Assembly (NCBI RefSeq): GCF_056746865.1
Contig: NZ_CM163382.1
DNA: 64,000 nucleotides
Reading direction: 5' to 3' (one strand)
Part shown: positions 1-50,152 of the stretch, in pieces
Layout: each line of letters begins with the position of its first letter
Numbering within the stretch: the stretch's first letter is position 1
Position numbers and translations under genes: made by a program
The notes under the pieces: generated by a model
Seen by the model: the letters and a program-made list of their open reading frames with translations, nothing else
Databases searched by the model: none
Told to the model about the DNA's origin: nothing

Positions 1-2927
1 GATTTTATGAATCTGAACGACGCAATTTTCTCGGAACATTATTCAGTGAAGGTGGTTTACCTTTCCGGCTACTCAAAGAATCAGACAGTCGCTTTCTGGC
101 TGTTTTCTCCAGGATCCTTGGACAATATGAGCAAGCAAAGCAGTCAGGTTTTTCTGCCCTTTCGCTGGCAAGAGCTGTCATAGAAAAATCAGCGCTGCCA
201 ACTGTTTTTAGCGAAGATACCTCTGTAGAACTTATCAGTCATATGGCTGATAACCTCAATTCCTTAGTACTTACTCACAACCTAATAAATCACAAAGAAC
301 CAGTACAACAGCTTGAGAAGGTTCACCCTACCTGGCGAAGCGAGTTTCCAATACCGTTAGATGATGAAACAGGAACGCATTTTTTGAATGGACTGCTATG
401 CGCAGCCTCTGTAGAGGCTAAGCCTCGACTACAAAAAAATAAGAGTACGCGTTGCCAATTCTATTGGTCAGAAAAGCATCCAGATGAGCTTAGGGTGATA
501 GTATCTCTTCCGGACGAAGTTTCCTTTCCTGTAACAAGCGAGCCGTCAACTACGCGCTTTGAACTTGCCATTTGTGAAGATGGTGAGGAAGTCTCTGGCC
601 TTGGGCCAGCCTATGCTTCTCTGGAAAACAGACAGGCAACAGTTCGATTACGTAAAAGCGAAGTGAGATTTGGCAGGCAAAATCCATCGGCAGGTTTGTC
701 GTTAGTGGCTCGTGCTGGAGGGATGATTGTTGGGAGCATTAAACTTGATGACAGTGAAATTGCCATTGGTGAGGTGCCGTTAACCTTCATCGTTGATGCA
801 GATCAATGGCTGTTACAGGGACAGGCTTCTTGCAGTGTGCGAAGCAGCGATGTTCTGATTGTGCTCCCTCGGGATAATAGCAATGTTGCTGGTTTTGATG
901 GCCAATCGAGGGCAGTAAACGTATTAGGACTAAAAGCACTACCTGTGAAGGGATGTCAGGACGTTACAGTTACAGCAAATGAAACTTATCGGATTCGCAC
1001 CGGAAGAGAACAAATCAGCATCGGAAGGTTTGCTCTAAATGGAAAGCGTGCAAGCTGGGTTTGTCATCCAGATGAAACATTTATTGGTGTACCAAAAGTC
1101 ATTTCTACACTACCGGATATTCAAAGCATTGATGTAACGCGTTACCTGAGCGGAATTTCAATTGAGCAATGTCATATACAAGAGATGCTGGGGGCTCAAT
1201 ATCTTTCTATCCGTAATAGTAAGAATGAAACGCTCTTGCGTCGCAAAATCGGTATTTTGCCTGCTGATTTCAGTATTGAGATAAAAGGTGGAATACACGC
1301 AAATGAAGGCACTATCGTAATCACCACACAGCATCCTTGTGTAGCAAAACTTAAAGATAAAACATTGGAGGCTACACGTAAGCGTACTGAGGGGCGAACA
1401 GAGATACAACTCAAAGCGGAAGGGGTACCTCCGGCATTTATTACATTACAAGTTCTGCCTAATTTGGCGGCTGACCCCATCGATATTGAGTTACCTTTTC
1501 CCGCTAAAGGCTGTCTCGCTCTTGATGTAAACGGACGTCCTCTGGATAAAAACATTACGCTGCATGATCTGCTGGGTTCCAGAGCGTTTCTGTTCTCCAG
1601 AAATGGCGAGCCGACAAGATATACATTGCAGTTGCATTTGCGCTCCGTTAGTGGATTACAGGCATGGCACGAATGGTGTTATACGGCGTTGAGCGATCGT
1701 CCTGTTGAATTGAATCTCTATAGTCTGCGCGAACATATTGAGAACCTGATTTCACTTGAGGCAGGTATTGACCAGGTTGTTGAGATGCGTATTACGGGGG
1801 CGGGTGTGGTCATGGCCTGGCAAATTCGTCGCTATAAATACAGTCTGCGCTATGATTATGAAAAAGAACTATTACTCAGCCAGTCAGTGAACCATCGTGC
1901 TGGACAGATTCCTTCCCCCGTTATCATGCTGTTAAGTGAACCCGAGAGGAAATCCATCCCCTTAGCATCAAGAATGAGCGAGGGAGTGCCTGTCGGTGAA
2001 TATGAGTTGAGCTCAATCGTTAACAAAAATGGACCGTGGTTGGTTGTCCCTAAACCGGGTGAAGAGATGGCTTTTCGTCCCTGCTTCATTCGTGGCGAAT
2101 CTTCGTTACCGGTAGAAGAAAGCAACATCCGCTCATTGCAGAAAGCGACCCAGCTTTTTAATCCACAGGCAGAAGTTAATACCATCACACTGGTTCTCGG
2201 ACAGATGGCTAACGATCCTGCCCATTCCGGCTGGCAATTTATGCGTAGCCTGTACGATCAATTTGGTTATTTACCACTGGCAACCTTTGAAGTATGGCGT
2301 GCACTGGTGCAGCATCCGCAGGCATTGGCAATGTCGCTCTTCAAATTTGAAATGTCAGCAGAGTACCTGAGTCGTATTGAGAATGAGTTCCCTATTCTAT
2401 GGGAGTTTTTCCCCATCTTTGAGATCAAAGCGGCATCTGAGCGTTTCAAATTGTTCCTGAGCCAAAAAGGTGCACCGGAGGAAACCCAGAAATTACTGGT
2501 TACTAATATGTTTCAACGGCTGGGGCTCGTGTTCCCGACATATGCCGATGAAATTGAGAAATGGTTAAGTAACGGACATCTCCCCCCGTCTATTCCTGAG
2601 TCTTTTGTCCACGTGTGGTATCAGGAGCTTTTACGTGAGCATAGTGAAGCTCAATGGCCAGAGTACGGCAGCAAGCGGCTGCATAGCTGGATGGCATCAC
2701 AAAAAAATCCAGTGATTGGTATTAATCCTGACGCAAATCACCGCTATTCCGTGGCCTTGTTACCCGTCTTCGCTGCAGCTGTGGCAAGCGGAAATGCTTC
2801 TTTTGAATCTGTATTTGACCGTAAACCCGGTGCCGTATTTTTCCTGAGGCAAGTCAGGGATTTCGATTCCCGCTGGTTTAAGGCCATCTTCCAGTGCAGC
2901 CTGTTGCGTTATGTTGCTAAAAAATAA
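1..2927 (+). CDS. Large protein of unknown function, 5-prime partial (continues upstream of the window); first gene of candidate two-gene defense operon
   Basis: Reading frame is open from position 3 through the ORF-track ATG at 243 with no stop, and the upstream translation (FYESERRNFLGTLFSEGGLPFRLL...) looks protein-like; stop at 2925-2927; no catalytic motif I can name. Confidence 0.7.
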   Translation, partial: FYESERRNFLGTLFSEGGLPFRLLKESDSRFLAVFSRILGQYEQAKQSGFSALSLARAVIEKSALPTVFSEDTSVELISHMADNLNSLVLTHNLINHKEPVQQLEKVHPTWRSEFPIPLDDETGTHFLNGLLCAASVEAKPRLQKNKSTRCQFYWSEKHPDELRVIVSLPDEVSFPVTSEPSTTRFELAICEDGEEVSGLGPAYASLENRQATVRLRKSEVRFGRQNPSAGLSLVARAGGMIVGSIKLDDSEIAIGEVPLTFIVDADQWLLQGQASCSVRSSDVLIVLPRDNSNVAGFDGQSRAVNVLGLKALPVKGCQDVTVTANETYRIRTGREQISIGRFALNGKRASWVCHPDETFIGVPKVISTLPDIQSIDVTRYLSGISIEQCHIQEMLGAQYLSIRNSKNETLLRRKIGILPADFSIEIKGGIHANEGTIVITTQHPCVAKLKDKTLEATRKRTEGRTEIQLKAEGVPPAFITLQVLPNLAADPIDIELPFPAKGCLALDVNGRPLDKNITLHDLLGSRAFLFSRNGEPTRYTLQLHLRSVSGLQAWHEWCYTALSDRPVELNLYSLREHIENLISLEAGIDQVVEMRITGAGVVMAWQIRRYKYSLRYDYEKELLLSQSVNHRAGQIPSPVIMLLSEPERKSIPLASRMSEGVPVGEYELSSIVNKNGPWLVVPKPGEEMAFRPCFIRGESSLPVEESNIRSLQKATQLFNPQAEVNTITLVLGQMANDPAHSGWQFMRSLYDQFGYLPLATFEVWRALVQHPQALAMSLFKFEMSAEYLSRIENEFPILWEFFPIFEIKAASERFKLFLSQKGAPEETQKLLVTNMFQRLGLVFPTYADEIEKWLSNGHLPPSIPESFVHVWYQELLREHSEAQWPEYGSKRLHSWMASQKNPVIGINPDANHRYSVALLPVFAAAVASGNASFESVFDRKPGAVFFLRQVRDFDSRWFKAIFQCSLLRYVAKK

Positions 2928-2939
2928 AAAGGAATAAGG

Positions 2940-5900
2940 ATGACTACACGCTATTTTTCGTCACTTATTGAACAATCGTTGTCTCGTTCAACTGAAGCAA
3001 CGCTCAGTATCATGGGCGTTACCAACCCGCAGCTGCGTGAACATCTCGCGCAACAAATGGGGGCTGATTGTGGGAAACCGGGCTCATTCCTTGCTTCTCC
3101 GGTATTCCAGCAAATGTTTGGCTGGAAGGAGTCAAACCACACGATGCGCAGCCTGACGGAAGGCAACGCATTGTTGAGCAAAGCAGTGGTTGATTCACTG
3201 GATGATCAGAATAATGGCCGGTACCGGTTTGGTGCTGACTGGAGGCCTTTTACGCACCAGTTAGCCAGTTGGAAAGCTTTGCTGGAAAAGAAACATTCAG
3301 TGGTGGTAACCAGTGGTACGGGTTCAGGTAAAACGGAATGTTTTATGGTACCGGTGCTGGAAGATCTTTACCGGGAACTGCATGAAAATGGCAACAATCC
3401 GTTGGTCGGTGTCCGAGCCCTTTTTCTCTATCCATTGAACGCCCTGATTAATTCACAGCGCGAGCGTCTGGATGCCTGGACGCGTGGTTTTGGTACAGGG
3501 ATCCGCTACTGCCTTTACAACGGCAACACCGAAAACCTACACGCTTCGGTAAAAAGCGAACAGGCAAAAAGGCCGAATGAGGTGCTCTCGCGCGAAAAAA
3601 TGCGTGAAGAACCTGCGCCGATTCTGGTGACCAACGGCACGATGCTGGAATATATGATGGTTCGCCAGGTCGACGCCCCGATTATCCAGCAATCTAAAGC
3701 ACAAAAATCACTACGCTGGATTGTACTGGATGAAGCGCATACCTATGTAGGGTCGCAGGCCGCTGAACTGGCGCTCCAGCTGCGTCGTGTGATGACCGCG
3801 TTTGGCGTGACACCAGATGACGTGCGCTTTGTCGCGACCTCTGCGACCATTGCCGGCAGCGACGCTGAAAAGCAGCTGAAAAAATTTCTCTCTGAATTAT
3901 CCGGTATCCCGCAGGAGCGCATCGATGTTCTGGACGGAAGTCGGGTGATTCCTGAACTGGAACCATCCAAAAACGTTTCTGTTCCGTTAGACGAGATAGA
4001 GCAAATACCTGATCTGGATCTAAGAGATAAAAATGATAATAAAATTAAAGGGATAAGTCCTGAGCGCTTTTATGCGCTTACGCATTCCCCCGAAGCGCGT
4101 TACATACGTGAGATGTTGGTCAAACAGCCCAATCCGATGAAGCTGGATGAGATAACAGAGCGGTTACACGTGCTGACAAAACAGCATTACAGCCAGCAGG
4201 AAGTACTGCGTTGGATCGATGTCTGTTCAGGGACTCAACCTAATGCAAAGGATCCCGCATTTCTTAAAGTCAGGGCGCATATCTTCCAGCGTAATACCCA
4301 GGGAATATGGGCTTGTGTTGATAAAGATTGCAGATTAAAGCACGGTACACCGCTCGACAAAGGCTGGCCCTTTGGCTATGTGTATGTGAACCAGCGACAA
4401 AATTGTGACTGTGGAAGCCCTGTATACGAAGTTGCATTCTGTAATGATTGTAATGAGCCTCATCTTCTGGCACGGGACAAAAAGGGCAAACTAGTCCAGT
4501 GGGAAAATAAAGGTGGCGATGAATTCTCTTTGCAGGATGAAGTACCTGTTGAACATGACGCTACAGAAGAAAAAGTCGAAAAAGAGAACAGTTTTCAGCC
4601 TCCGTTGATTATTGCCGCAGGAGAGACCAGCGAGGCAGGTTATACCCTACAACGCCTCGACCGTCAGACGCGCCGTATTGGCGTTATTAACAATGACAGC
4701 ATTCCGCTGATTATTAATGATATTGAACAGGTTTGTAGTGCCAGTGGCTGTGGCTACAGAGGCATGAGTGGGAAACAGCCCTTCCGGCGTGCACTATTAG
4801 GTGGGCCATTTTACGTTACTAATATCGTGCCCACCGTTCTAGAGTATTGTCAGGACTTTACCAGTGATGAAGGCAAAGAGGGCGTCGGACCAGATTCGTT
4901 GCCAGGACGAGGTCGTCGACTCATCACCTTTACAGACAGTCGACAAGGGACAGCCCGAATGGCGGTGCGTATGCAGCAAGAAGCAGAACGCAGTCGCTTA
5001 CGCGGAAGCGTAGTCGAAATTCTCAGCTGGCATCAAAGGACGCAAACGTCTACAGCGCCGAATGCCAATGCCGATCTGGAAAAATTAGCGGCCAGGGCGA
5101 AGCAAGCCCGTGAGCAGGCAGAAGAATATCGAAGCTGGGGAATGCCAGACCAGGCGAAATTGTCACAAGCACAGGCTGAACAGCTTGAACAGGCTTATCA
5201 GGCTGCAACCGGTGGGAAAGCTGCGACTATCCTGGTATCCCGAACCTGGACGGAGATGGTTAACGAGCTTAAAGAGAGAGCCGATATCCGCGGGCCGGTT
5301 CTGCAATATAACCATTATCTTAAGCCTGAAGTGTTTAATGAAAACGGCGGCCCCCTTAAGCTTTCTGAAATGTTGTTGTTCCGGGAATTCATGCGTCGCC
5401 CTAAACGGACTAACAGCCTGGAAACACAGGGGCTGGTTCAGGTTGGTTACCAGGGGCTGGAGAAAATACATAAGAGCCCCTTGCACTGGCAGGAAAAAGG
5501 ATTAACGCTGGATGACTGGCGCGATTTTCTCAAGGTTACGTTGGATCATTACGTTCGCGAGAGCAACTTCACACAGCTGGATGATGAGCTGAAAAACTGG
5601 ATTGGTAGCCGTTTTTCATCAAAATTCGTCCGTAACCCGGAATCAAAAGATCCTGAAGATAATCAGAACAGACGCTGGCCTCAAATTCGTAATGGCAACG
5701 TATCCCATCGTTTAGCGAAGTTGCTGATGCTGGGGGCTGGATTCAAAACCGTCAATGCGGCAACTATTGATATTATCAATACATGGCTGAAAGAAGCATG
5801 GGCCCAACTTACCGGACCGCTTGCAGTACTGAAACCCGATGGCAACCGTTTTTATTTACCGAAAGAGCATATGACTTTTTCTTTAATCACGGATGCCTGG

Positions 5901-8900
5901 ATTTGCCCGGTAACCAATAAAATCCTGGATACGGCTTTTAAAGGCTTAACCCCTTATCTGCCTACCCATATTTCGTTCGAGCATCTTACCCTGGCGCAAT
6001 ATGACACTTTTGTCGCGCAGAAAGTCACAATGCCGGAAATCTGGAAGCTGGATCGTTCACAGGAAGACTACGCAGAGGGTCTGGCAAAAGCACGCGACTG
6101 GGTCAGCCATGATCCGCTGATCGCACAATTGCGGTCGGAAAACGTCTGGACAGACATTAACGATCGTGTCGTGGAAGGCGGCTTCTACTATCGTACTGCC
6201 GAGCACTCTGCCCAGCAGTCGTCAGAACGTCTGCAAAGCTATGAAAAGATGTTCAAGAATGGGCAACTAAATGTTCTCAACTGTTCCACCACCATGGAAA
6301 TGGGGGTTGATATCGGGGGTATTACTGCGGTGGTAATGAACAACGTACCGCCACATCCGGCCAACTATTTACAGCGCGCCGGGCGAGCCGGGCGTAGTAA
6401 AGAATCACGCGCGATCTCTTACACCCTATGTAAAGGTAACCCACACGACCAGCAGGTTTTTGCCAACCCGCTCTGGCCATTTGAAACCATGATCCCGGCA
6501 CCCATGGTCGCGATGAACTCCGCCCGACTGGTGCAACGTCACGTCAATGCATTATTACTGTCCGACTTTTTATGTAACGTTATTGGCGAAACCGATAAAG
6601 AAAAAACCAGCCTCGATAGCCTCTGGTTTTTCGGTGAAGATGACGGGCAGTCAAAATGCGAACGCTTTAAAATCTGGCTGGAACGTCCGGTTCTTGATAT
6701 CGACACGGCGCTGGAACGGCTGGTGAAAGGTACGGCGTTGCATGGTGCAAGAGCCGAATATCTGCGGGATAAAACAATCAACGCGATCACCTTCCTGCAA
6801 CAGCGGTGGCTCTCCGTTTATCGCGATCTCGTGACACAGGAGCGTGAGTCGCAGCCGCAAACGCCTTATCGTAAGCGCATAGAGCTGGAGAAGAAACGGC
6901 ACTGTGGCGAGTATCTGCTGCGCGATCTGGCTGCCAGAACCTTCCTGCCGGGATACGGTTTCCCGACAGATGTAGTGACGTTTGATAACTTCACGATGGA
7001 AGATTATATCCGCGAAAAATCGCAGAAAAGTCGTGATAAAAAGGACCGTGAAGATAACGTTTCCCGTTATAAAGGATTACCTTCCCGTAACCTCGGTGTT
7101 GCCATTCGTGAATATGCACCGGGAGCAGAGATCATCCTTGATGGCCGTGTCTTCCGCTCTGCCGGTGTCTCACTGCACTGGCACAACATTAATGCTGATA
7201 CCAATGAAGCCCAGCGTCTGGATTGCGCCTGGCGCTGTCACAAATGCGGGACCATTGGCTATGAAGAGGGGATGAGCAGTTCCGGGATGCTCTTTTGCTC
7301 CAATAGCGCCTGCGGCGAAAAAATAATCATGGATAATCGCCGTCAGGTGCTGCAGCCTGCCGGGTTTGTCACCGATGCACACGCTCCGGTAACGAACAAT
7401 ATTGAAACCATGAAATTCGTCCCGGTTGTCCCCGCGTGGGTCTTTGTTAAAGCAGAGCCCGTACCGTTGCCTAACCCGCTAATGGGTTATATGGCTTCTG
7501 GGGCTGATGGGCATGTTTTCCAGCAAAGTTTGGGGGAAGGTGGACACGGTTATGCATTGTGTCTGAGCTGTGGCCGTGCTGAGTCGATGCTGAATGAAAA
7601 TGATGCGCCGAAAAGTATGGAAGCTCACTATCCACCGCGTCCGGGTAAAGCGGATCGCGACAGCCAGAATCATCGTCTGATTTGCCCCGGTTCGACGGCA
7701 CTCATGAAGAATGTCACCCTGGGCGCACTGGCGCGTACCGATGTCTTTGAAATGGTTCTGCGCAAACCGCAAAACGGCGAGTATCTGCCAGATAACACAG
7801 AGGAGGGGCGGATTGTTGCCATGACTCTGGCGGTTGCTCTGCGTCAGGCGCTGGCGGGCGTTCTGGGTATCTCCGCCGCAGAACTCGGCTATTCTGTACG
7901 TCCGGTCAGACTGGAGGATGGGCAATCGGTATTAGCCGTACAGCTTTATGATGTGATCAGCGGTGGTGCAGGTTTTGCCTCCAGCGCACCGGTACACATT
8001 GAAGCTATATTGCAGGGAATGGTGAAACAGTTAGGCTGCCGCCATTGTGAGACTGCATGTAGTGAATGCCTGCTTGATTCCCAGACTCGCCACGATCACG
8101 ATTTGCTGGATCGCAAAGCGGCGCTGGCCTGGCTTGGCGATGACTTCACGTATTACATCGGTTTACCGGATGAAGAGACATTCTCGCTGCCGGATGCCCG
8201 CTACTGCCCTGGCGCCATTGGCGATACGATTCGCCGGGCGATTAACGAAGGCGCTGAAAAGCTCACCCTGTGGATGACCGGCGCGCCCAATGAGTGGGAT
8301 TTATACGCACGTCAGTTCCGCGCGGCGGTTCAGAACTATCGGCTAAAAGACAACGTCGAGGTCGATCTTGTTATTCCTACGGGAGTGGATGACCCGGACC
8401 TGTTGCATGAACTATCGCAATTTACTGCGCTGGGTGTGCGGCTGTGCCATGTTGAACAGGATCTGCAATTACCGATCGTTGCCCAGGTCACCTTTACCGA
8501 TCGCGTGATGACGCTGGCCTCTCGCAGCCAGCAGGCAACGATTCCGGGGCCGGAGTGGCACCTGAATGACGAACTGGTGGTGCGTAGTCTCGGTTATAAA
8601 ACGGTAGAACTGAACGAGTTTATTCTGCCGGCTAAAGCCACCAACGCTGTCGAGCGGGTCAAAGACATTCAGATCCACAAACAGTTGAATGGACCACTGT
8701 CGCAGTTTGGGCAACGCTTCTGGGACGTGCTGTTTAACGACCATGAAGAAGCGCAGTCACTGATGAATAACACGCGAATTACCGGCGTTCACTATACCGA
8801 TCGCTATCTGCAAAACCCGGTTGCGCTGGCGTTGTTGGGATCAATTCTGAGACCGCTAAAAACAAAGCTGACCGATGGCGCTGAAGTGACGCTGGATACG

Positions 8901-9284
8901 CTATTTAAAGATAAAGATCGCCCCGGTAACCGGCCTTTCCATGACTGGATGAGCATAGCGGATTTTCAGGATTTCGCTGATCAGTGGTTTGCTGCTGCGC
9001 TGGGCAGGCCGGTAGAACTGACGGTGTTCGACTCGCCGCGCGATATCCCTCACCATCGTAAACTGACGGTGACTTTTGAGGATGGTCAGGTATTGAAGAT
9101 CCGCTTCGATCAGGGGATGGGCTACTGGCGCATCAACTTTTCATCGCAATGGCATTACTTTGATTTCCGCGATGACGTTTCTTTCCAGTTAGTCAAAATG
9201 GCTCAGGCCTGCAAGGAAGGGAATGTCGCCAACAGCGAAGAGAGTTGGGCAACGGATGTGCTGGTGGAGGTGATCGCCTCCTGA
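2940..9284 (+). CDS. Giant (2114 aa) DEAH-box superfamily-2 helicase with C-terminal Cys-rich Zn-ribbon (DUF1998/MrfA-like) region; candidate DruE-like defense helicase
   Basis: Walker A GTGSGKT (aa 126-132, nt 3315-3335), DEAH box VLDEAH (aa 264-267, nt 3729-3740), SAT motif, helicase C-domain motif QRAGRAGR (nt ~6372-6395), Cys clusters [31 protein letters not shown] (nt ~7220-8075); starts 13 nt after gene 1 stop behind aaggaataagg RBS. Confidence 0.85.
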
Positions 9285-49829: not shown

Positions 49830-49916
49830 TGGTGCGAGGGGGGGGACTTGAACCCCCACGTCCGTAAGGACACTAACACCTGAAGCTAGCGCGTCTACCA
49901 ATTCCGCCACCTTCGC
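49830..49916 (-). tRNA. leuV: tRNA-Leu(CAG)
   Basis: 87-nt reverse complement of GCGAAGGTGGCGGAATTGGTAGACGCGCTAGCTTCAGGTGTTAGTGTCCTTACGGACGTGGGGGTTCAAGTCCCCCCCCTCGCACCA; symbol assigned by operon order. Confidence 0.9.
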
Positions 49917-49950
49917 ACAGTCATCTTACTTTTTTTGATATCGCCTCGTT

Positions 49951-50037
49951 TGGTGCGAGGGGGGGGACTTGAACCCCCACGTCCGTAAGAACACTAACAC
50001 CTGAAGCTAGCGCGTCTACCAATTCCGCCACCTTCGC
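49951..50037 (-). tRNA. leuP: tRNA-Leu(CAG), variable-arm variant (one substitution relative to its neighbours)
   Basis: Same 87-nt gene with taagaacact instead of taaggacact (plus strand). Confidence 0.88.
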
Positions 50038-50065
50038 CCAGTGCGAGCAATATCAACGTGGTTTT

Positions 50066-50152
50066 TGGTGCGAGGGGGGGGACTTGAACCCCCACGTCCG
50101 TAAGGACACTAACACCTGAAGCTAGCGCGTCTACCAATTCCGCCACCTTCGC
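50066..50152 (-). tRNA. leuQ: tRNA-Leu(CAG)
   Basis: Third identical-length copy; first gene of the leuQPV operon on the minus strand. Confidence 0.9.

Follow-up and report, generated by a model that had tools for sequence, protein, structure and literature searches.

The closest characterised relatives of the locus studied here are two-gene Druantia type III anti-phage systems. In E. coli, the characterised Druantia III-A DruH-DruE pair is of the ECs_5259/ECs_5260 type (NCTC12923, ATCC 8739 and EDL933; PDB 9tud and 9tu7), and for the Pseudomonas aeruginosa pair PaDruH/PaDruE the DruH domain order is reported, by description, to be the same (10.64898/2026.05.13.724313). Both DruH and DruE are required for phage protection in these other pairs. 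Deletion of the N-terminal domain of DruH abolishes defence (10.64898/2026.05.12.722862), alanine mutants of E75, R78/R79, W88 and Y114/W115 in the characterised DruH do the same (PMC13192584), and residues 22, 28 and 64 of PaDruH, in a putative catalytic cleft of its helical N-terminal domain, are essential (10.64898/2026.05.13.724313). The 2026 preprints disagree on the biochemistry of DruH, which is presented as an ssDNA binder without nuclease activity, as a 3'-5' exonuclease or as a dimer-dependent nicking nuclease and protein sensor. For PaDruH an exonuclease activity has been claimed, which another group did not observe with E. coli DruH. In the searched literature, we found no experiments on the yjiT-druE lineage of the immigration control region, to which the present locus belongs.

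The main finding of this analysis is that the first gene of the window (the whole 64,000-nt stretch of DNA that was analysed) is the E. coli accessory gene yjiT/druH, part of a Druantia type III anti-phage system, and that its truncation is a window-edge effect in a gene that is already known and annotated. The protein encoded in the window matches the PADLOC DruH3 profile PDLC00049 (E = 0, 1596.7 bits) over profile positions 123-1099 of 1100, and its score of 1082.9 bits against NCBIfam NF038336 (YjiT_fam) lies above the curated cutoff of 150 bits, which places it in the YjiT/DruH family with its first residue at position 110 of the 1090-position model. Close homologues carry precomputed matches to Pfam PF27201 (YjiT_N) and PF27205 (YjiT_2nd); a scan of full-length YjiT with a Pfam copy predating these two entries returned no family. 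All the residues encoded in the window (123-1096) are identical to those of the 1096-aa RefSeq yjiT product WP_001513100.1. The locus lies at the proximal edge of the immigration control region of E. coli (mcrBC, hsdRMS, mrr), with yjiS upstream and druE, mcrCB, symE, hsdSMR and mrr downstream.

No stop interrupts frame 3 between base 3 and the TAA at 2925-2927, which gives 974 sense codons in the translation of window 3-2930. Over bases 1-243, a script found two stops in one of the remaining frames (181 and 226) and five in the other (8, 14, 47, 128 and 209). With a stop probability of 0.056 per codon at the base composition of the window, 80 open codons have a chance probability of ~0.01 and 974 of ~6e-25. 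The first-pass annotation, made from the sequence alone, had stated that there is no in-frame stop back to base 3, which both the translation and the script bear out, and that the upstream translation looks protein-like, which agrees with residue 1 of the window matching position 123 of the DruH3 profile. The ORF list nevertheless enters gene 1 as 243..2927 (894 aa) from the first in-frame ATG inside the window, because ORFs running off the window go unlisted. The features of the region are collected in the table.

Table. Features at the 5' edge of the window and in the adjoining druE region.
Feature	Coordinates	Strand	Basis
Last two bases (GA) of codon 122 (CGA, Arg122) of druH/yjiT	1..2	+	First base is C at L001 6000
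3' portion of druH (yjiT), codons 123-1096 and TAA stop	3..2927	+	Open frame, family profiles, identity to WP_001513100.1
Retained part of YjiT_N (residues 123-261), linker and first strands to residue 383	3..785	+	AlphaFold2 secondary structure, invariant columns
Internal ATG (Met203), not a translation start	243..245	+	No Shine-Dalgarno; inside conserved N-terminal domain
druH-druE spacer, 12 nt, with the druE ribosome-binding site (AAAGGAATAAGG)	2928..2939	+	Sequence read directly
druE, 2114-aa helicase of the YprA-like SF2 family, Druantia type III core gene, intact	2940..9284	+	DruE3 profile

The missing 5' end was read from public genomes that show no difference from the window across the 36.9 kb of overlap, not from the window's own source assembly. 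E. coli FDAARGOS_497 matches window 1-36867 at 100% identity over 36,867 consecutive bases, and in that genome yjiT is annotated as a 1096-aa gene whose start, at L001 5637 (window -363, with L001 6001 being window base 1), is in frame with window base 3. E. coli strain ZJ3920 is annotated with the same start and length, and K-12 MG1655 with the same start, its upstream 1105 bp being 100% identical. The proposed check was to extend the sequence upstream until an in-frame stop and to look for a plausible start with its ribosome-binding site; run on these identical genomes, it yielded a TTG codon with an AAGGAG ribosome-binding site 6 nt ahead of it (-375..-370) and an in-frame TGA stop at -456. 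In the reconstructed druH, residues 1-122 of 1096 are thus missing from the window. This upholds the earlier predictions that gene 1 would exceed 974 aa, its full length being 1096 aa, and that its N-terminal region and promoter would lie outside the window, since the TTG start is 364 nt 5' of base 1.

We regard as very likely the explanation as a whole, in which the window edge truncates a gene with DruH function whose true start is the TTG at window -363, giving a product of 1096 aa. The N-termini of enterobacterial orthologues begin at the TTG column of the alignment, and two orthologous loci, 63% and 77% identical, again have a TTG start after AAGGAG(C/T)TTGCT; no N-terminal peptide or mapped transcription start was found for yjiT. 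That translation would begin instead at ATG -411, the first ATG of the frame, to produce a 1112-aa protein in which the TTG is an internal leucine, is suggested by the ORF list of an identical genome, which runs from this ATG (L001 5589, 1112 aa), and by gene callers having given longer N-termini to two orthologues (P0017, 1115 aa, and P0021, 1117 aa). However, the extra residues of P0017 and P0021, which end in '...SKEL(T/A)L', are the conserved AAGGAGCTT ribosome-binding region translated, ATG -411 itself is preceded by TTTCAAATTAGAA, which contains no ribosome-binding site, and the family N-termini line up at the TTG column. What decides is that in the same two orthologous loci in-frame stops sit 18 and 42 nt 5' of the TTG with no alternative start between; because of these stops a longer product is excluded, ATG -411 was rejected as a start, and we consider it very improbable.

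A start at ATG 243, which would make an 894-aa protein and leave the upstream open frame as a remnant or a chance occurrence, has in its favour that this is the first in-frame ATG inside the window, and it is the least probable of the alternatives. It is preceded by CTTATCAGTCAT, without a Shine-Dalgarno sequence, whereas the 80 codons upstream match the DruH/YjiT models, including the invariant L132, E138, G139, G140, L141, P142 and P188. The ATG encodes Met203, which in the AlphaFold2 model sits within a helix of the N-terminal domain; family conservation is continuous across it, and full-length homologues are all ~1095-1119 aa, which supports the original view that it is not the true start. 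It is also improbable, to much the same degree as a start at ATG -411, that the 5' part of yjiT is disrupted in the source genome by an IS, a deletion or a stop, so that the window would hold a pseudogene fragment. The locus does decay often: K-12 has two deletions (window 1146-4162 and 6313-8494), IS1, IS2, IS3, IS5 or IS1414 lies within yjiT in several E. coli genomes, which are a minority, druE of strain ZJ3920 has an internal stop and a 921-aa DruH-DruE fusion cluster exists (P0118). Yet the 974 codons of druH left in the window and the 2114 codons of druE are all uninterrupted, genomes that share 36.9 kb of identical sequence with the window have a complete yjiT of 1096 aa, and the upstream segment is contiguous in 604 of the 631 genomes having it, 27 being without a contiguous upstream match. 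The repeated decay of yjiT-druE in E. coli through K-12 deletions, IS elements and fusion alleles might reflect a fitness cost.

Transcription of druH most likely starts in the yjiS-yjiT spacer of 498 bp (29.5% G+C). The only reported RNA polymerase/promoter site, which is further upstream than the TTG and hence outside the window as had been anticipated, is an RpoD-binding site with H-NS and a predicted TTGAGA-18-TATAAA promoter in this spacer (PMC3946193). We located the motif at L001 5417-5446 (window -583..-554). When the upstream region was scanned for consensus promoters and terminators there was no match; TTGAGA-18-TATAAA was missed because the scan accepts only -10 hexamers with T as their sixth base.

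The part of DruH that lies beyond the window edge is rich in conserved residues. The AlphaFold2 model of full-length DruH (mean pLDDT 81.2) has helices at residues 3-261, strands at 272-818 and helices at 834-1095, and its pTM is only 0.46, which makes the relative placement of the domains unreliable. As modelled, DruH fits the family architecture of a helical N-terminal domain (approximately residues 1-261), a chain of Ig-like β-domains (the first β-rich domain starting at residue 272) and a helical C-terminal domain. Foldseek searches against the PDB (to 2026-04-08) returned only generic Ig-like domain chains, the best being multi-Ig-domain receptors and S-layer proteins. Across 30 aligned sequences, ECs_5259 among them, 63 residues are invariant in the family, 16 of which are within the missing residues 1-122. 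E75, R78, R79, W89, W117 and the EGGLP motif are invariant in this alignment and all are present in the reconstructed full-length gene; inside the window, only L132 and E138-G139-G140-L141-P142 remain of the acidic/basic N-terminal motif set. E75, R78, R79, W89, Y116 and W117 align with E75, R78/R79, W88 and Y114/W115 of the characterised DruH. The warning that the 894-aa ORF would miss N-terminal domains was well founded, for it is without residues 1-202 of a domain spanning ~1-261.

Downstream of druH, the genes are arranged as in Druantia type III: druH is directly 5' of a co-oriented druE of ~2100 aa with DEAD/DEAH, Helicase_C and MZB/DUF1998 domains, there are no other dru genes and the gene after druE is mcrC, on the opposite strand. 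This druH-druE layout is the one expected of a two-gene operon. The PADLOC DruE3 profile PDLC00037 matches DruE over its full length (E = 0), the Pfam domains found are DEAD, Helicase_C and MZB, and the motifs include a Walker A at residue 128 and a DEAH at 264. DruE is 34% identical to the characterised ECs_5260 over its full length, into the C-terminal region, and also matches PDB 9tu7. The strict HxKxxxxD pattern, used to look for an active PLD-like nuclease domain at the C-terminus, has no match in DruE nor in the characterised ECs_5260, and is therefore too strict to be informative.

By homology with related systems described in the 2026 preprints, DruH would consist of a helical N-terminal domain, an Ig-like domain chain and a helical C-terminal domain, and may engage phage replication intermediates that contain ssDNA, or possibly late proteins of the phage. 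It would then license DruE, encoded downstream and presumably a 3'-to-5' helicase-nuclease, to unwind and destroy phage DNA, which would spare the cell, and the N-terminal domain cut by the window edge would be required for this defence. The DruH proteins in these preprints are 27% identical to the window DruH, over residues 15-258 only. The value of the finding is practical, the window edge itself bringing no new biology. A DruH annotated from the 894-aa ORF, or even from the 974-aa fragment, would seem to lack the best-conserved stretch of its N-terminal domain, which is essential according to mutagenesis, and its defence system might be labelled incomplete. Once the 364 nt upstream are restored, an intact Druantia type III operon stands beside McrBC, an EcoKI-type Hsd and Mrr, in a more complete form of the defence island of which laboratory K-12 keeps only remnants.

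The window system and the characterised ECs_5259/ECs_5260 type are two-gene druH-druE operons, and both encode a DruH of ~1100 aa with the same order of N-terminal helical, Ig-like and C-terminal helical domains, a TTG start with a strong ribosome-binding site, and the invariant E75, R78, R79, W88/89, W115/117, GG motif and P182/188. Residues 22, 28 and 64 of PaDruH would, by their numbers, likewise fall within the stretch missing from the window. The two differ in sequence: the 27% identity to ECs_5259 covers only residues 15-258, and the rest is barely alignable. In 9tud an ssDNA/ATP-binding pocket lies where the fifth Ig-like domain (Ig5) meets the C-terminal domain; its residues (Y670, N672, Y733, R1031, H1062, R1064 and K1067) correspond to non-conserved positions or gaps in the YjiT clade, and those from N672 onwards are not recovered as conserved in the window lineage, in a region where identity is ~17% and the MAFFT alignment untrustworthy. 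Because only the N-terminal core is common and equivalents of the solved ssDNA/ATP pocket are not recognisable, a different trigger or a different ligand switch is possible; it is a tentative idea, which we think rather less probable than its opposite, that yjiT-druE in the immigration control region forms a functionally distinct lineage within Druantia type III. The settings also differ, the ECs_5259 system sharing the mobile island SpLE6/OI-172 with Zorya II and ARMADA II, and the window system lying in the immigration control region. The Sakai immigration control region was considered as the source of the characterised DruH and rejected, as there is no yjiT there and ECs_5259 is in the phage-like element SpLE6. 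By comparison with these distant relatives, WP_001513100.1 of E. coli has the same sequence over 123-1096 and the same neighbours, with no difference except the first 364 nt missing from the window, and this intact form has been reduced by deletions in K-12 MG1655 to yjiT (b4342, 505 aa) and the yjiV pseudogene.

The most useful outcome of this analysis is an exact reconstruction of the window's first gene, druH (yjiT), in which sequence comparison points to a TTG start at -363 (negative coordinates lie upstream of window base 1) and a product of 1096 aa, residues 1-122 of which are missing from the window. The truncation itself, by the window edge in an already annotated gene, is correct, ordinary and already known. 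Translation of window 3-2930 gives 974 sense codons and then TAA at 2925-2927, and a script check found the frame stop-free in bases 1-243, bearing out the first-pass annotation, which had seen no in-frame stop back to position 3; of the other two forward frames, one is interrupted by stop codons at 181 and 226, the other at 8, 14, 47, 128 and 209. At 45.6% G+C and a stop probability of 0.056 per codon, the chance of 80 open codons is ~1% and that of 974 essentially nil. The gene was listed as 243..2927 (894 aa, ATG) because the mechanical ORF list opens each ORF at the first start codon and leaves out ORFs running off the source. That the upstream part is protein-like and the gene extends beyond the window is confirmed by matches of the 974-aa fragment to the PADLOC DruH3 profile PDLC00049 (E = 0; residues 1-974 on profile positions 123-1099 of 1100) and, from position 110 of 1090, to NCBIfam NF038336 (YjiT_fam, "STY4851/ECs_5259 family protein"; 1082.9 bits, cutoff 150). 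The two profiles therefore indicate independently that ~110-122 N-terminal residues are missing. After a 12-nt gap containing a ribosome-binding site comes druE, assigned by a DruE3 match over its full length, with DEAD, Helicase_C and MZB domains, Walker A at residue 128 and DEAH at 264. Together, druH and druE are a Druantia type III system.

Window 1-3000 is matched in 619 complete E. coli genomes, chromosomally in every case. FDAARGOS_497 is identical over window 1-9000 (9000/9000), and its sole difference over 1-50033 is one 33-bp indel inside tsr. This in-frame indel in a chemoreceptor gene is an extra copy in the window, beside a GCC-repeat stretch. Both FDAARGOS_497 and ZJ3920 carry yjiT annotated as 3291 nt and 1096 aa (WP_001513100.1), starting 364 nt upstream of window base 1; K-12 MG1655 has the same annotated start and is 100% identical over 1105 bp (the yjiS-yjiT spacer plus the yjiT start), a segment contiguous in 604 of the 631 genomes possessing it. 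Extension into these identical genomes, as initially suggested, reaches an in-frame TGA and reveals AAGGAG 6 nt ahead of the TTG at -363. This TTG is best read as the real start because the ATG at -411 lacks a ribosome-binding site, and because homologues agree. In orthologues of 60-77% identity and 1094-1100 aa from Salmonella Typhi (STY4851), Klebsiella, Serratia, Pantoea, Cronobacter, Kosakonia and Pectobacterium, the first residue falls at the TTG alignment column; two orthologues were called with longer N termini, and the extra residues read "...SKEL(T/A)L", the translated AAGGAGCTT ribosome-binding region. At the DNA level, two orthologous druH loci, L007 (63% identity) and L008 (77%), have a TTG start after AAGGAG(C/T)TTGCT, with in-frame stops 18 and 42 nt upstream and no alternative in-frame start in either. 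The distant homologue ECs_5259 also starts with TTG, preceded by AAGGAAGG. Codons 1-121 and the opening base of codon 122 thus lie outside the window, and the ATG at 243, rightly doubted as the true start, is Met203. A TTG start with a strong ribosome-binding site is found in four of the four druH genes read as DNA, including the 27%-identical ECs_5259; retention of a weak start codon despite such divergence may reflect selection for low DruH expression.

Placement of the druH promoter outside the window, also proposed initially, is well supported, and its exact position is a prediction. In the yjiS-yjiT spacer (498 bp, 29.5% G+C), a genomic SELEX study lists an RpoD holoenzyme site marked as associated with H-NS; the motif of the promoter predicted there, TTGAGA-18-TATAAA (PMC3946193), occurs only once. 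A simple consensus promoter scan upstream of druH found nothing, and no mapped druH transcription start was found. G+C steps up from the spacer to druH (45.5%) and druE (51.2%), by which druH is compositionally more foreign than druE. This contrast is consistent with the reported faster divergence of DruH than DruE (PMC13192584).

Coordinates of features in and around the druH-druE locus (L001, the locus in an identical public E. coli genome; L006, the ECs_5259 locus)
Feature	Window	Other	Detail
yjiS-yjiT spacer	-862..-365	L001 5139-5636	
TTGAGA-18-TATAAA	-583..-554	L001 5417-5446	
Nearest upstream in-frame stop	-456		TGA
Candidate starts	-411, -408, -363		ATG, TTG, TTG
Ribosome-binding site	-375..-370		AAGGAG
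TTG start codons		L001 5637-5639; L006 9011-9013; L007 7001-7003; L008 7001-7003	
druH in window	3-2927		
druE	2940-9284		2114 aa
Invariant DruH residues in 1-122			W15, R23, D29, R31, L33, Y36, E42, Y43, L46, E75, R78, R79, W89, G112, W117, R119
First K-12 deletion	1146-4162		3017 bp
Second K-12 deletion	6313-8494		2182 bp
tsr indel	36868-36889		33 bp
tRNA-Leu(CAG) genes	49830-50152		three, tandem, minus strand

What the window edge removes probably matters for function. Modelled with AlphaFold2 from a 30-sequence alignment (mean pLDDT 81.2, pTM 0.46), the reconstructed protein comprises an α-helical N-terminal domain (helices 3-261), a β-rich region (272-818) and an α-helical C-terminal domain (834-1095); Foldseek matches to the model are chains of Ig-like domains. 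In this model, the edge sits in a low-confidence loop (residues 124-128) joining two N-terminal-domain helices. Residues 1-122 make up 11% of the protein but hold 16 of the 63 columns that are invariant across the 30 aligned sequences, the distant ECs_5259 among them. The solved DruH (PDB 9tud) shows significant pairwise similarity in the N-terminal domain only (27% identity, residues 15-258, E = 1.7e-21), and the residue numbers in PMC13192584 coincide with 9tud/ECs_5259 numbering. The loss-of-function mutations E75A, R78A/R79A, W88A and Y114A/W115A (PMC13192584) correspond to YjiT E75, R78, R79, W89 and Y116/W117, none of which the window encodes, while L129, G136/G137 and P182 of the characterised DruH correspond to L132, G139/G140 and P188, just within it. 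Deletion of the N-terminal domain abolishes defence in a characterised DruH (10.64898/2026.05.12.722862), and three residues essential in P. aeruginosa DruH (22, 28 and 64) lie along a putative exonuclease cleft within the same domain (10.64898/2026.05.13.724313). The missing stretch would thus contain conserved, functionally essential DruH residues, a warning for analyses of the fragment.

For the window's DruH-DruE lineage, we infer a mechanism by homology. DruE, a YprA-like helicase of superfamily SF2, would carry PLD-like nuclease domains at its C terminus, load onto single-stranded or forked DNA and translocate in the 3'-to-5' direction. Preprints on other DruH-DruE pairs find that DruH is needed alongside DruE but are at odds on its role: an ssDNA-binding protein inhibited by ATP and devoid of nuclease activity, a 3'-5' exonuclease recruiting DruE to forks (10.64898/2026.05.13.724313), or a sensor of late phage proteins with dimer-dependent nicking activity (PMC13192584). 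We lean towards a reading in which DruH would use the helical domains at its two termini to recognise or process ssDNA-containing phage replication intermediates, thereby licensing DruE, and in which its Ig-like region would evolve fast under phage selection. The 9tud ssDNA/ATP-pocket residues were not recovered as conserved in the YjiT clade; over the pocket region the alignment is ~17% identical and unreliable.

Laboratory K-12 carries a dead Druantia III system with its intact counterpart in the window, because MG1655 yjiT (505 aa) and the yjiV pseudogene equal the intact druH-druE minus two deletions, the flanks being otherwise 99.9% identical. In several complete genomes, yjiT is interrupted by differing insertion sequences (IS1, IS2, IS3, IS5, IS1414); an internal stop codon interrupts druE in ZJ3920; and in one homologue cluster (P0118; 921 aa, 229 member sequences), DruH residues 1 to ~432 are fused to the C-terminal part of DruE. 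These lesions suggest repeated, independent inactivation. Its downstream neighbours mcrC, mcrB, symE, hsdS, hsdM, hsdR and mrr place the locus at the proximal edge of the immigration control region of E. coli (PMC4498929; PMC13192584). Farther on, past the defence island, tandem tRNA-Leu(CAG) genes are in keeping with an ordinary E. coli core-genome setting. In Sakai, yjiT is absent from the immigration control region; the characterised E. coli Druantia III has a different location, SpLE6/OI-172, which it shares with Zorya II and ARMADA II.
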